Shown here: positions 218 to 62,866 of the stretch, piece by piece
Layout: each line of letters begins with the position of its first letter
Position numbering within the stretch: position 1 is the stretch's first letter
Source of the DNA: Octopus vulgaris
Taxonomy: Eukaryota
Reading direction: 5' to 3'
DNA: 64,000 bases
Assembly (NCBI GenBank): GCA_951406725.2
Contig: OX597817.1
Coordinates: 132,618,001 to 132,682,000 of the forward strand
Position numbers and translations under genes: made by a program
Notes under the pieces: model-generated
What the model was told of the DNA's origin: nothing
Database searches by the model: none
What the model saw: only the letters and a program-made list of their open reading frames with translations

Positions 218-865
218 GGCGTGGCTGTGTGGTAATAAGTTTGCTTCCCAGCCACATGGTTCCGGGTTCAGTCCCAAAGTCTTGTGATTGGATTTAATAC
301 ATAGAAACTGAAAGATGCACGTTCGATATATATATATATATATATATATATATATATCGTTGGTATTATGGAAAAGTGTCGTAAGTGCAAAACGTTGCTT
401 TTTCAGAAAACGAAAAAAGGATTTCACCTTTCTATAGCAAAACCGTTGTAATACACTTTGACGATTTTTGATATCTTGGCATCTAAAGCAGGTGGAGATA
501 CGATAGTTTGACCAAAAGAACTGGCTATTGGAAGCAAAAATAAATATTGAAGAAAACGCATTTGGCCTAATTCGGACATACGACAGTTTAACATAATAGC
601 AACAATATGTATATAATATATATGTGTGTATGTGTATGAGAGAGAGAGTATGCTTTTGTGCCTGTGTTTGTCTCCCACCACTGCTTCATGACTGTTGGTG
701 TGTTTATGCCCCTGTAACTTAGCGGTTCGCTAAAAGAGGTTGATAAAAGAAATACCAGATTTCGAAAATAAGCACCCGTGTCGATTCGTTGTATTAAAAT
801 TCCTTAAGGCGGCGTCCCCAGCATGGTCGCAATCCAATGATTGAAACAAGCAAAAGATAAAAGAA
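218..865 (+). mobile_element. SINE family A (tRNA-Gly-like head, internal (TA)n), interrupted by a 245-bp insert
   Basis: Head GGCGTGGCTGTGTGGTAATAAGTTTGCTTCCCAGCCACATGGTTCCGGGTTCAGTCCC; tail CAGCATGGTCGCAATCCAATGATTGAAACAAG-(AAAAGAT)n; more than 12 copies in the window. Confidence 0.85.
359..603. mobile_element. Short element with ~33-bp inverted ends inserted in the SINE's (TA)n
   Basis: GTTGGTATTATGGAAAAGTGTCGTAAGTGCAAA versus reverse complement of TTCGGACATACGACAGTTTAACATAATAGCAAC; internal AATAAA. Confidence 0.6.
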
Positions 866-1619
866 TTGCGATATATTCACTTCGTAAAACAGATTAAACA
901 GACATGCGTTTATAGATCTGAAGTTGAACTTAGCAACTCTGCCAAACCCATTTTAGCGAACCACTTTCACACGAAACATGTGTCTATGTTGAAATAATTG
1001 ATTTGTACAGCAGATGTCATTTAAATAATTTGAAAGAAAAACATGGCGGTCTTTGTGATGTGAGGTTAAACATGTTTCCTTTTGAACAGAATTGTCCAGT
1101 TCGATTAACGATTCAATTTCTTTCAAATAATCGTTTATACATATTCGTACATAAATATGTGTGTGTGCGTGTGTGTATGAATATATGTGTGTATGCATAT
1201 GTATGAGTGTGTGTGTGTTCTTATAATATATCTATCGTGTATATATATATATATATATATATATATATATATATACATAAATATATATATATATATATTT
1301 TTATATATGTACATCGATATAATCAAATATTCATGAAATACATATATGCACGCACACACAGGATGTCCCCCACACCCATACATCATTCCCATATTCCACA
1401 CACGCGCATACATAGAGTTACTGTAACATGAGTAAGGTATATCAATAACTAGCTTTATGACCCGTCGTTGCCGGGTCATAGTGCTAGTGCATGTATATAT
1501 GTGTATATATATGTGTACATATTACATGTACATCTATATATATACAGCTACACATAAAATACAAAATACAAAGTTATATCTTGATATCGCTAGTGATAAC
1601 AATACTCAAAATATATAAC

Positions 1620-2180
1620 AGACTGGAATTGTAGGCTCGTCTCTTGCAATTTCGATCAATTGTATCTTGTCCTCCCTCGTGTTTAGAAGTGTGGCTACAA
1701 TCCAGCCTACCTCTACTTCTGGGGAGAGATTTAATTTTTTATCCGGGACGTCCTATGTCCCAGATATAAAGGTAAAAATAAAATATTTCCAATTTGCAAG
1801 GTTTGAGTCGAGTACTCCCTTGCACGCTCCGTTGACTCGAACCTTGCTTCTATTGCGGCGAATTTACCGCCTCTGGTTAGATATCTTTCATAGTCGCACC
1901 AAGAACTTTTCGATGGTGCTTTCCTCCAGGTGTTCAATTTTTCTTTTCTCTACATTTTATATTTTATAGACAATAGTCTTTTCTTTAATTTAATTTTTTA
2001 TTTCGTTTGTTGGTGTTATCCTAGATTCACTGTCGTTGTCGGTGATCAGTCCGAAATAGGTTTGTATTTCTTCCATTTTAATTTTAATGAGTTCGCGTCC
2101 GCCGACGGCTGCAGCGAAATTCATTTTTGGACTTTCTTCTATCGAAGGCATTCTAACAAAAATGCTTCCGTGCAAACGGT
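1620..2180 (-). pseudogene. Degenerate non-LTR retrotransposon ORF1 (gag-like, Tx1/L1-type) fragment
   Basis: Broken reading MNFAAAVGG...ARFESTERAREYSTQTLQIGNILFLPLYLGHRTSRIK...SPEVEVGWIVA; frameshifts and stops. Confidence 0.45.
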
Positions 2181-2441
2181 GAAAATATTGTCAATTTCCC
2201 CAAACAGGGACACAATTCAATTTTTAAACAATGACCAAAGCCCCTTCTCCCAAAGGGGGAGGGGTTACAATTTACAATTATTTAACAAATGCAACACAAC
2301 AACGTTTCCCTTACGAGGAACCATCAAACGTGATAACAATAGTTAAACAGTAATAATAATAACAGTACTCAGTAGAAGCGCTGTTCGAGAAAACAGACAT
2401 TACATACAGCCAAACTTCATATAGGTACTTAATGCTAGCTA

Positions 2442-3112
2442 ATTAGCAGATAATCTAATGTAAAAGCCGTGGTAAAGGGTATTGCACACCTCTATCTGGA
2501 CTATTCCATTTCTGCACGCTAATTTTATTTTTAATTTATTCCCATTCATGTGAAATCACTTATTCAAGTTCAAGTCATTGATGCAATTTTATACCAATTG
2601 CTATTTTTACTTTTGTTATGTTACGATTATATTATACTTTAGTTTGATTTTAATTACTACTTACTACATATAATTCAATTGTTATTATTATCTCTAATTT
2701 TTATAGTTAAAGTGAAAGTATCTGACATAAAATAGAGAAATGTTTTTGTTTCACTTTTAACACGTAATACTGAAATAGTGGAGAAGATATGATATTGCTA
2801 TGGGCTCGCCCTAGGCAAGAAGTTGAACATTTTTTTGCCCATGAAACTACATGGACCCTAAGTAAGGCATGTGTAAAACTTGAATGAAATTGGTTGTGTA
2901 GTTCTCAAGTTTTAGGGAATCGTAGTAGAGAGATATGATATTGCTGTGGGCTCGCCCTAGGCAAAAAGTTAAAAAAGTTTTTGCCGATGACACTCCCCGG
3001 ACACTAAGTAAGGCATGTGTAAAATTTGAATGAGATTGGTTGTGTAGTTCTCAAGTTTTAGGGAAACACACAGACAGACAGACACACATTCTCAGTTTTA
3101 TATATAGAGAGA
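2442..3112 (+). mobile_element. Helitron/Helentron-like non-autonomous element with internal 146-bp tandem duplication
   Basis: Units begin AGATATGATATTGC at 2785 and 2931; ends ACACACAGACAGACAGACACACATTCTCAGTTTTATATATAGAG; left boundary uncertain. Confidence 0.55.
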
Positions 3113-3282
3113 GATGTAGTGCTATCACTACTTTGTATAGAACTCAATACGTGGATGGAGGGGATAAATATATATCTATTCTTTCAAAGTCGACTGTCTA
3201 ATCTGAGTTTCACGGTCAGTCGGACAGCTCAAGGCTGCTCTAAACAGCCTATCTAGGGTGAAATATCAACTTCCATATTATC

Positions 3283-61619: not shown

Positions 61620-61870
61620 CGCACAAGGTTTATGGAAGACCAGCAGCCACATATGCATAGCAACCTCCACTCTCAACGGCACTGATGCTATCCAAGGGAA
61701 AGGCAAAGGCCGATACAGCTTGGCACCAATGACGTTGCAACTTGATTGAAATGGAGCAACGTGAAATAAAGTGTCTTACTCAAGAACACAGCACACAGCC
61801 CGATCCGGGAATCGTACTCACTACCTCATGATTGTATGTCCGATGTTCTAACCACTGATTAATTCACCTT
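61620..61870 (-). mobile_element. SINE family D-related copy
   Basis: TGGAGCAACGTGAAATAAAGTGTCTTACTCAAGAACACA...GGGAATCGTACTC...CTAACCACTGA. Confidence 0.75.
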
Positions 61871-61953
61871 CTCCCCGCCACACATATATGAATATATATA
61901 TATATATATATATATATATATATATATATATATATATATATATATATATATAT

Positions 61954-62392
61954 ACTCTCTTTTACTCTTTTACTCTTTTACTTGTTTCAGTCATTTGACT
62001 GCGGCCATGCTGGTGCACCGCCTTTAGTCGAGCAAATCGACCCCGGGACTTATTCTTTGTAAGCCCAGTACTTATTCTATCAGTCTCTTTTGCCGAACCG
62101 CTAAGTGACGGAGACGGGGACGTAAGCGCACCAGCATCGGTTGTCAAGCAATGCTAGGGGGACAAACACAGACACACAAACACACGCACATACATACATA
62201 TATATATATATATATATATATATATATATATATATATATATATATATATATAAATACATATATACGACAGGCTTCTTTCAGCTTCCGTCTACCAAATCCA
62301 CTCATAAGGCATTGGTCGGACCGGGGCTATAGCAGAAGACACTTGCCCAAGATGCCACGTAGTGGGACTGAACCCGGAACTATGTGGTTGGT
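61954..62392 (-). mobile_element. SINE family A, well preserved
   Basis: (TACTCTTT)n tail, body and GTGGGACTGAACCCGGAAC head portion. Confidence 0.9.
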
Positions 62393-62716
62393 TATATAAT
62401 ATGAGGGAATATTATTCCAAACTTACAGGGAAAAATTTTTGCACATTACTTAATCATCGTTATATGTTTTATCTTATATATAAACTTTCTATAATATGTA
62501 ATTTTTCTAAATGGTATAATTTAATTTTTCTTAATTGAATTGATAAATGGCGGCTTTTTTCTAATTTATATATATATATATATATATATATATATATATA
62601 TATATGAATATATATAGATGGATAGATAGATAGATAAATACACACACACACATATATATATACATATATATATATATATCTACATATATATATATACATA
62701 TATATATATATATATA

Positions 62717-62866
62717 ATTTGTAGAAAAACAAAAGACGAAGACAGGTGTATGAACAGTAAGCAGGTGTATTAGTTTGACGCTCAGGAACAATGGAAGAAG
62801 TCTTTTCCGTTTCGAGCCTACGCTCGTCAGAAAGGAACACGATGAATTAAACAGAGAGAGGATGAA
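62717..62866 (-). mobile_element. Family C copy
   Basis: Minus CCTTT-CTGACGA-GCGTAGGCTC-GAAA-CGGA-AAAGA at 62835-62801. Confidence 0.78.

Follow-up and report, generated by a model that had tools for sequence, protein, structure and literature searches.

Hammerhead-bearing inserts in the Octopus vulgaris genome as probable pseudo-LTRs of coding Penelope-like elements

The short hammerhead-bearing inserts in a 64,000-nt stretch of the Octopus vulgaris genome (contig OX597817.1, positions 132,618,001 to 132,682,000; hereafter the window) belong, very probably, to the pseudo-LTRs (short end-repeats) of several Penelope-like elements (PLEs) that code for protein, and were likely inserted by the reverse transcriptase (RT) and GIY-YIG nuclease of these elements. 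The inserts form ten families (A, B, C, D, E, F, H, I, J and K). Six of them are traced to coding PLEs, namely A to a Neptune-like element, B to a Penelope/Poseidon-like element, and C, D, F and H to Hydra-like elements, these clades being assigned from motifs rather than from an RT tree or a named reference set. No ORF is traced for E, I, J and K among the copies examined. The bulk pattern, worn pseudo-LTR stubs with hammerhead motifs, is ordinary and already published, and the families may already be catalogued in the octopus repeat library of PMC13282606 (Zenodo), Repbase or Dfam. The features that appear unusual from the sequence are an A-box/B-box cassette at the start of the family B repeat, a G3-C8 swap in the hammerhead core of family E and U6 in that of family A.

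Hammerhead motifs in the window and in the genome

An insert is present at every position named in the first-pass annotation, mostly flanked by (TA)n and carrying a hammerhead-shaped relic, but most of the copies in the window are mutated. A strict hammerhead descriptor gives 0, 2 and 3 matches in the window at 0, ≤1 and ≤2 mismatches, as compared with 0.009, 0.12 and 1.26 expected from 566 shuffles of the window (maxima of 1, 2 and 5). A less strict descriptor gives no perfect match and 4 matches at ≤1 mismatch (99 shuffles: mean 0.66, maximum 3). Because these counts are low and the copies are mutated, the window alone provides modest evidence. When 100 evenly spaced 10-kb stretches of the genome (1 Mb in total) are searched with the strict descriptor, 21 perfect matches are found versus 0.04 expected, and 40 at ≤1 mismatch versus 2.2 (46 shuffles). 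These matches group into 15 clusters, one of which is a 7-copy array. Thus, the frequency is above that in shuffled sequence, as the annotation had proposed to check, with a modest excess in the window. Its density of one motif per 4-5 kb also holds, since 16 core relics are located by hand in the 64 kb (about one per 4 kb); the motifs are genuine, although decay has affected most of them.

The cores of the families are conserved, another point raised for checking. The majorities of the genome copies of A, B, C, D, H and K give complete cores with paired stems that differ between families, and the same picture is read from individual copies of E, F and J; too few copies of family I (41360) span its core for a judgement. 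The minimal type-I core (C3-A9, G12-A15.1 and UH, with paired helices I and II and palindromic helix III) is present in the majorities of B, C, D, H and K and in copies of F and J, one middle base of helix III being unpaired in C. It is hardly credible that the motifs arise by chance from DNA rich in microsatellites. The small window excess at relaxed stringency (3 versus 1.26) fits this explanation, as does the single match of a separate structural descriptor, at 13180, which is probably due to chance; this descriptor overlooked the extra base after A9. However, the 21 perfect motifs per Mb versus 0.04, the intact family majorities with different paired stems, and the paired G3-C8 swap in all 20 copies of E argue against it, and chance matching is refuted at the family level.

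Among the matches listed in an Rfam scan of the window (150 of 376 rows), nearly all are miRNA models on microsatellites and none is a hammerhead family. An inverted-repeat search of the window is swamped by (TA)n. A hammerhead-like string at 49074, inside an abundant tRNA-type SINE (36 matches per Mb), is regarded as fortuitous. For the insert at 359 there are six relatives, but a core is not clearly recognisable.

Families of inserts and their coding partners

The family samples are the best 40 matches per genome search and so lean towards copies like those in the window. Family A is represented by a stub at 4334-4481 (minus strand), whose core at 4460 has U at position 6 and equals the family majority, and by older minus-strand stubs at 41024-41193, 41640-41834 (core at 41765) and 62717-62860 (3-nt deletion in the core). 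A Neptune-like ORF of the partner type is represented by its GIY-YIG end at 39592-40084 (plus strand), which contains an internal stop. An A-type core is found downstream in 17 of the 30 loci chosen by Neptune-like GIY-YIG. The 826-aa partner ORF of L151 matches RVT_1 (E 1e-7); its GIY-YIG motif is visible by eye, the Pfam match (E 0.077) being below the cut-off. A CX4CxxC linker precedes GIY-YIG in L151 and L152 and fits the CX2-5CxxC of the Neptune clade. By linker and target the partner is probably Neptune-like, and it may also be Nematis. (TA)4 adjoins 27/30 ends of family A, and 21/30 of its 5' ends lie at -73 to -53. U replaces the usual A6 in 12/13 A-type cores of an unbiased sample and in 15/17 ORF-linked cores, and these U6 cores are probably crippled.

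The families with Hydra-like partners are linked to coding sequence through ORF ends or pieces. Family C is found at 3616-3789 (minus strand; core near 3774 with one G12 change) with an inverted partial copy at 3842-3951 (plus strand), and L142 and L126 carry a collinear Hydra-like ORF end. Family D is found at 47247-48024 (plus strand), with an inverted 3' end, a long pyrimidine-rich body and a core at 47897, and at 52008-52302 (minus strand) as a direct copy with an inverted 3' end and a core at 52120. Its single ORF-linked locus, L104, has a C-terminus that scores against the Hydra-like end above all 2000 shuffles. A D-like decayed core at 55690-55745 (minus strand) lies outside the assigned families. 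A family F stub with its inverted partner (51439-51571) occupies 51110-51575 (minus strand; core near 51272), and F is also linked through a single locus, L362. Family H is young, with copies about 99% identical; its stub at 33947-34173 (plus strand) has an intact core at 34034 and an inverted 3' extension at 33770-33945 (minus strand), and L158, L172 and L175 link it to Hydra-like coding. The full set of Hydra-clade motifs (CxCX5C linker, with CxxC and CxH around E and N) is present in the second ORF of L151, which was used as the query; CxxC..N..CxH is read in L142 and L104, and the other links are by tblastn.

Family E is found at 48125-48335 (minus strand), with a G3-C8 swapped core at 48304 and all three stems paired. 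G3-C8 replaces C3-G8 in 20/20 loci (18 by pattern and 2 by eye), and the copies share at most about 370 nt upstream. For natural G3-C8 cores, the literature located holds only an unpublished remark on a G3-C8 variant, in one paper, and Lunse et al. 2017 may describe such cores. The family I stub at 41355-41620 (minus strand) has a hammerhead-like core at 41541, read from this copy alone. The family J stub at 3981-4290 (minus strand) has a decayed core near 4199, and other copies have a full core with a CGAUCG stem III. A single hammerhead-like core at 63190-63250 (minus strand; core at 63244) has no second copy among the loci examined.

The inserts had been described as sequence-unrelated, but those at 47247 and 52008 belong to the same family (D), and that at 4334 has four further relatives in the window. 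The AATAAA reported to follow some motifs is a feature of family H only (20/20; other families 0/25, 2/22, 1/28, 0/17, 0/15 and 0/19). Inverted copies, which at the 5' side are a hallmark of endonuclease-bearing (EN+) PLEs, are present at about half of the loci of B (15/30), C (16/30), D (13/29), H (9/20) and E (9/20), some rows of D and H being the same place counted twice, but at none of those of K (0/20) or of A (0/30), the commonest family. The 3' ends are fixed at (TA)n in A and C (28/30 in C), and two alternative ends exist in B and H. The 5' ends cluster at the repeat start in A, B and H (10/20 rows of H at -97 to -87) and are spread out in C and D without a single hot spot. The mobilisation of Penelope type suggested earlier is borne out by the 3' ends fixed at (TA)n, the head-to-head inverted copies, the minimal type-I cores and the palindromic stem III. 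In such a process the nuclease would nick AT-rich DNA, and reverse transcription would begin within the repeat and mostly halt at the 5' end of the RNA or earlier. Frequent fold-back during reverse transcription would make the inverted arm, and the inserted copies would afterwards decay neutrally.

Since longer copies of six families extend into PLE coding sequence, the inserts are interpreted largely as solo or 5'-truncated pseudo-LTRs rather than as non-autonomous RNAs. The first-pass annotation had considered the whole set non-autonomous; this is not supported for the six of the ten families that run collinearly into GIY-YIG/RT coding sequence, whereas it is plausible for K, possible for short B copies and might also apply to E, I and J. 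Family K is a ~306-nt non-coding head-to-tail unit, one of which lies at 4731-5040 (plus strand; core near 4930, mutated here). One near-dimer (L181) and four wraps (L185, L188, L193 and L195) are found among 20 loci, none of which reveals shared upstream coding sequence; in L178 a Neptune-like relic lies upstream, with unrelated sequence between. These properties of K, and the great excess of short copies over long ones, favour the idea that each of the ten families is a non-autonomous ribozyme RNA in its own right. In view of the six families that extend into coding sequence this idea is very unlikely, and for A, B, C and H it is already contradicted. Of the ten families, only K looks like a retrozyme, which would likely move as a non-coding unit borrowing the same Penelope enzymes.

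A tRNA-like cassette in the coding repeat of family B

The window copy of family B consists, on the plus strand, of the B-box end of a tRNA-like cassette (10481-10506), an expanded internal (AAT)n tract (10506-11350), interrupted by a 3' piece of a non-LTR element at about 10760-11254, and a pseudo-LTR tail with the ORF start codon and the hammerhead (11360-11503; core at 11409 with G12 changed). An inverted partial 3' copy precedes it at 10374-10480 (minus strand). The (AAT)n tract had been taken for a microsatellite target, but it is an internal part of the element. The order of the repeat is A-box/B-box cassette, (AAT)n, start codon, hammerhead and ORF. At loci chosen by the ORF 3' end the cassette follows the stop directly in 26/30 and the tail is present in 25/30; at loci chosen by the ORF 5' end the tail lies directly in front in 18/20. 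A pseudo-LTR with the ORF start is thus confirmed in B, the one family examined for this, with partial tandems at L401, L404, L408 and L411. RT and GIY-YIG motifs are both read in L386. The number of solo end-repeats is roughly 40,000 by extrapolation.

The short B copies are not a composite separate from the partner, for head, (AAT)n and tail all lie in the repeat of the coding element. The head sits inside the coding element, which rules out an independent tRNA-SINE that has acquired its tail from elsewhere. Nor does the tail target the (AAT)n of another SINE, since copies carry the head along with the tail, and inverted arms mirror the two as one block. The reading frame that starts at the AUG of the repeat leads into the ORF with no splicing needed: it is free of stops in L399 and L412, is maintained in 7/11 by manual reading, and is open over 41 codons in 23/28 solo copies. 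An intron of 38-47 nt linking the hammerhead AUG to the ORF is therefore unnecessary and was dropped.

Because the repeat begins with the cassette, the cassette stands where a promoter is expected, and it may serve as one; short copies could then behave like SINEs. It is conceivable, though rather unlikely, that B is read by Pol III from the cassette, the whole coding element being free of terminators and introns and translated from an (AAU)n leader, and that solo repeats are SINE-like units mobilised by Penelope enzymes. An A box is present in 29/30 heads and a B box in 27/30, at tRNA spacing. The 5' ends gather at the cassette start (7/11 head-bearing loci of an unbiased sample at -6 to +9), most short copies start at the cassette, and L402 starts at -2 and runs through the repeat into the ORF. 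The unspliced frame and the precedent of Pol III with a hammerhead in Schistosoma SINE-like repeats (PMC6765202) point in the same direction. However, families A and H have 5' hot spots even though they lack a cassette of this kind, and Pol III reading requires uncapped translation. The head of L059 has no Rfam tRNA match, and ARAGORN accepts 1/30 heads at its strictest setting versus 0/300 shuffles, and 5/30 versus 4/300 at its loosest. On B, raw RNA reads (X21-X23) and contigs (X1) run equally in both directions, are mostly run-on and have no pile of starts or ends, so that they bear on neither start site, cleavage nor splicing.

TTTT is absent from the repeat majority and from the 2,324-nt body of L386. 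Thirty related copies, which form one lineage and are not independent, hold 4 T4 runs versus 396 A4 runs over 23,602 aligned nt. This deficit is only suggestive of Pol III, as its significance varies with the null (P 0.0135 by base shuffle, 0.087 by first-order Markov, 0.26 and 0.77 by synonymous shuffles of two segments). T4 is likewise absent from Dong-like pieces (0 in 2,961 nt) and from 3/29 other ORF clusters (699-1,479 nt), and the ORF has no Phe codon bias (7 TTT:13 TTC, P 0.24).

The prospects are not far below even that the cassette is an old tRNA-derived SINE head carried as a passenger, that Pol II transcribes the element, and that the only effect of a 5-bp hairpin where the cassette begins is to make reverse transcription stop or fold back there. 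Many inverted arms join at this hairpin, Pol II promoters of the TATA/Inr-like type are described from other Penelope repeats (PMC3846280), and other tRNA-type SINEs are abundant here, as the above family illustrates. Nevertheless, the A and B boxes are preserved at their spacing in the majority sequence of the coding lineage, the cassette start is also the 5' end of many copies without an inverted arm, and the element is without T4 runs.

The full proposal, that B is a Pol III-transcribed coding Penelope with a captured tRNA-type promoter, purged terminators, an uncapped (AAU)n leader and SINE-like solo copies, while G3-C8 and U6 cores occur naturally in sister families that replicate beside it, is accordingly offered as a tentative one, against which the balance leans. 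No literature report was found of a coding retrotransposon read by Pol III or of SINE-like copies moved by Penelope. If true, such an element would merge SINE and autonomous element into one unit, and its SINE-like copies would be moved by Penelope enzymes instead of LINE enzymes. What hammerheads do in Penelope elements is described as an open question in PMC8557442 and PMC11167929. In this one genome there are successful, matched families whose cores are canonical, pair-swapped (G3-C8) or, in the U6 case, probably crippled, so that the question is directly testable.

Comparison with known systems

Pseudo-LTRs of metazoan PLEs are described as containing thousands of mostly single, truncated minimal type-I hammerheads per genome, spread over many families; the motifs have a short helix I, a long helix II, an extra base after A9 and a palindromic helix III, and also form opposite-strand pairs (Cervera and de la Pena 2014, PMC4209133). 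The octopus inserts resemble these in their single truncated motifs, opposite-strand pairs and helix layout. The cores given there are C3-G8 and U3-A8, from which E (G3-C8) and A (U6) differ, and the part of that account dealing with PLE hammerheads does not name cephalopods. The EN+ clades Neptune, Penelope/Poseidon and Hydra have a C-terminal GIY-YIG, and PLE copies are marked by 5' truncation, an inverted 5' copy, an optional tail and a (TA)n bias (Craig et al. 2021, PMC8557442). The CX2-5CxxC linker of the A partner and the CxCX5C linker and CxxC/CxH ends of the Hydra-like ORFs are common to these clades and the octopus elements, whereas the clade descriptions in that paper mention neither a tRNA-like cassette, as in B, nor a Pol III promoter.

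Family B also resembles the Poseidon element PAc of Anolis (PMC11167929) and Pen2a of Adineta (PMC3846280), in which the pseudo-LTR holds the ORF start and the hammerhead overlaps the coding sequence; internal RT start at two sites, palindromic inverted junctions and solo pseudo-LTRs are also described there. The octopus elements resemble them in these traits, family B having the ORF start in the pseudo-LTR, two 3' ends and solo copies. The promoter of Pen2a is TATA/Inr-like, whereas B has A and B boxes with (AAT)n. The C3G/G8C change is an engineered partial rescue in PAc, whereas it is the natural state of family E. Non-LTR retrozymes are non-coding type-I hammerhead units of about 300 nt, present as monomers and tandems and derived from PLE pseudo-LTRs (PMC7229834; bioRxiv 10.64898/2026.07.22.740005). 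These traits fit K and the L257 array, as known here from the genomic sequence, whereas most octopus families are stubs of coding elements. In the Schistosoma SINE-like repeats Sm-alpha and Sj-alpha, a Pol III-type promoter is followed by a hammerhead (PMC6765202). These are non-coding tandem repeats, whereas the cassette of octopus family B belongs to the repeat of a protein-coding Penelope element.

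Hammerhead motifs in the window and in the genome

A plain core search of the window, which is dense in microsatellites, gives 13 strings, and 16 core relics are counted by hand in these 64 kb, in agreement with the density of about one motif per 4-5 kb claimed in the first-pass annotation. The first structural descriptor gives 1 match versus 0.11 expected from shuffled sequence. An extra base follows A9 in published minimal hammerheads (accessible part of PMC4209133), and a descriptor with this base detects 0 perfect and 4 one-mismatch motifs versus 0.66 expected. A stricter descriptor gives 0, 2 and 3 matches at 0, ≤1 and ≤2 mismatches, versus 0.009, 0.12 and 1.26 expected, respectively. 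Because the strict matches are few, most window copies are worn; only the cores at 4460, 34034 and 48304 agree with the pattern of their own family. When the genome (2.8 Gb in 227 contigs, some 30 of which are large) is sampled as 100 evenly spaced 10-kb stretches, the strict descriptor detects 21 perfect and 40 near-perfect motifs versus 0.04 and 2.2 expected, in 15 clusters, one of which is a 7-copy array. Genome-level enrichment is therefore real beyond doubt, and the predicted excess over shuffled DNA is found. The earlier observation of hammerhead-bearing inserts stands for motif presence and density, and is corrected for the number of families: the named inserts, described as at least a dozen unrelated sequences, collapse into ten families (A-F and H-K).

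Pseudo-LTR of family B

Family B (10374-11503) consists of a head with an A box and a B box, an (AAT)n tract, and a tail with an ORF start codon and a hammerhead. The 75-nt head lies upstream in 23 of 30 tail-selected loci (read by eye), and the tail is present in 25 of 30 head-selected loci. The A box is present in 29/30 and the B box in 27/30 heads, spaced as in tRNA; tRNA identity is barely recognised by Rfam and ARAGORN. The possibility that the head is a separate SINE is dropped, since a coding ORF ends, with its stop codon, just before the head in 26 of 30 ORF-selected loci. In 18 of the 20 loci compared, out of 42 matches, the ORF start comes immediately after the tail. Because the head follows the stop codon and the tail precedes the start, all parts belong to one repeat: the pseudo-LTR of element B is made up of head, (AAT)n, AUG and hammerhead. 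We take its ORF to be Penelope/Poseidon-like, from its motifs and the absence of a linker. The unspliced frame from the repeat AUG into the ORF is stop-free in 2 of 11 copies, kept in 7 of 11 by eye and in 1 by a strict automatic criterion.

The (AAT)n tract is a repeated landing site. The 3' piece of a non-LTR element, presumably Dong/R4-like from a motif, lies in it at 10760-11254 (plus strand) and at two other loci (L058 and L241). A second, non-coding element of ~600 nt lies in it at L035, L036, L054 and L058, with (AAT)n on both sides.

The 5' ends of B fall at −6 to +9 in 7 of 11 head-bearing loci of the unbiased sample. This hot spot marks the start of the repeat and is by itself no proof of Pol III, because A and H have 5' hot spots without a cassette; C and D have none. 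The B body contains no TTTT in 2,324 nt; its probability varies with the null chosen (0.0135, 0.087 and 0.26/0.77), and some LINE-like controls are depleted as well, so that this absence is suggestive of Pol III, not decisive. We infer that the cassette serves as a promoter; that Pol III reads it is possible but rather doubtful.

Other families and their coding partners

Eight families (A, B, C, D, H, K, F and E) were represented by their window copies in genome searches, the 40 best candidates being scored per search. Family A, the insert at 4334 with four window relatives, has its 3' end fixed at (TA)n and, at 21 matches per Mb, is commoner here than any other family. With the GIY-YIG piece at 39613-39879 as genome query, coding copies are retrieved, of which 17 of 30 have an A-type core downstream. 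A related locus (L151) contains an 826-aa ORF with RT, GIY-YIG and a CX4CxxC linker, a type that marks Neptune/Nematis (accessible part of PMC8557442). Copies of C, H and F continue into ORF ends resembling a second protein with a Hydra CxCX5C linker; D continues into a Hydra-like ORF end at one locus. No coding partner is traced for E, I and J (E among the best 40 candidates scored).

Copies of H (33947-34173) are 99-100% (about 99%) identical and lie on many chromosomes, many as inverted pairs. Because of this identity, H is young, and it is probably still or recently active. The family K unit is ~306 nt. Among 20 loci, one holds a near-dimer and four show a wrap-around, and no common upstream coding sequence is found in these loci. 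At 4825-4880, an octamer-like motif and then a TATA-like box precede the K hammerhead, and are kept in most K copies compared; by analogy, we assume that this pair may be an snRNA-type promoter. Elsewhere, L257:3082-7693 is a young retrozyme-like satellite: its seven perfect hammerheads are identical, spaced ~359 nt apart and arranged as two opposite arrays. On the minus strand of L318, near positions 971 and 1333 counted from its end, lie two hammerheads in tandem, at a distance of 362 nt, with a U3-A8 core.

Three further claims hold in part. AATAAA after the motif is limited to H. Inverted ends occur in families such as B (9 of 14 insertions of the unbiased sample, read by eye) and are absent from A and K. 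Mobilisation of non-autonomous RNAs by Penelope fits the non-coding unit of K; A, B, C, H and F (D at one locus) are linked to ORFs.

The anatomy, ORF links, end positions and inversions are the observed part of the mechanism. From the literature, AT-rich DNA would be nicked, RT would start inside the repeat, yielding optional tails, inverted junctions would be palindromic, and minimal hammerheads would cleave as dimers. Short inserts would be copies that begin where RT starts and extend as far as the RNA 5' end or an earlier stop, inverted arms may arise by fold-back, and copies would decay after insertion.

The window also contains a decayed Tc1/mariner-type transposase (about 53830-55075, plus strand; Pfam DDE_3, E 1.4e-9), a 298-aa frame with a zinc knuckle (24096-24989, minus strand; Pfam zf-CCHC), which is likely ORF1 of a LINE, and two copies of a 146-nt tandem repeat (2776-3065).

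Core variants and comparison with known elements

Family E has G3 and C8 in 20/20 loci, with three paired stems. In the accessible parts of the papers, the G3-C8 double change is only an engineered partial rescue (PMC11167929) and a natural U3-A8 core is reported (PMC3088659 and PMC4209133); E differs from these hammerheads by a natural, family-level G3-C8. In family A, position 6 is U in 12/13 unbiased and 15/17 ORF-linked copies. As far as these papers are accessible, a natural A6C hammerhead has low activity (PMC3088659), and insertion in vitro does not need cleavage (PMC11167929), with which U6 in the commonest family would agree. A pyrimidine tract precedes the A core (4334-4481), and an intron of Drosophila virilis Penelope ends at helix I (PMC4209133, same part); by analogy, the tract and U6 could stem from a splice-acceptor role.

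No report of a natural G3-C8 family or of a Penelope with a Pol III promoter is found in the literature searched, which covers few subscription papers. The insert population as a whole is of an already known kind. In a published survey, 190 Penelope-like families make up 6.83% of an octopus genome, hammerheads being unmentioned in the accessible part of that paper (PMC13282606). Family K resembles non-LTR retrozymes, as far as these are described in the accessible parts of PMC7229834 and bioRxiv 10.64898/2026.07.22.740005. The B cassette, a candidate promoter, and the family-level cores of E and A merit bench tests as probable new variations on known kinds of element.
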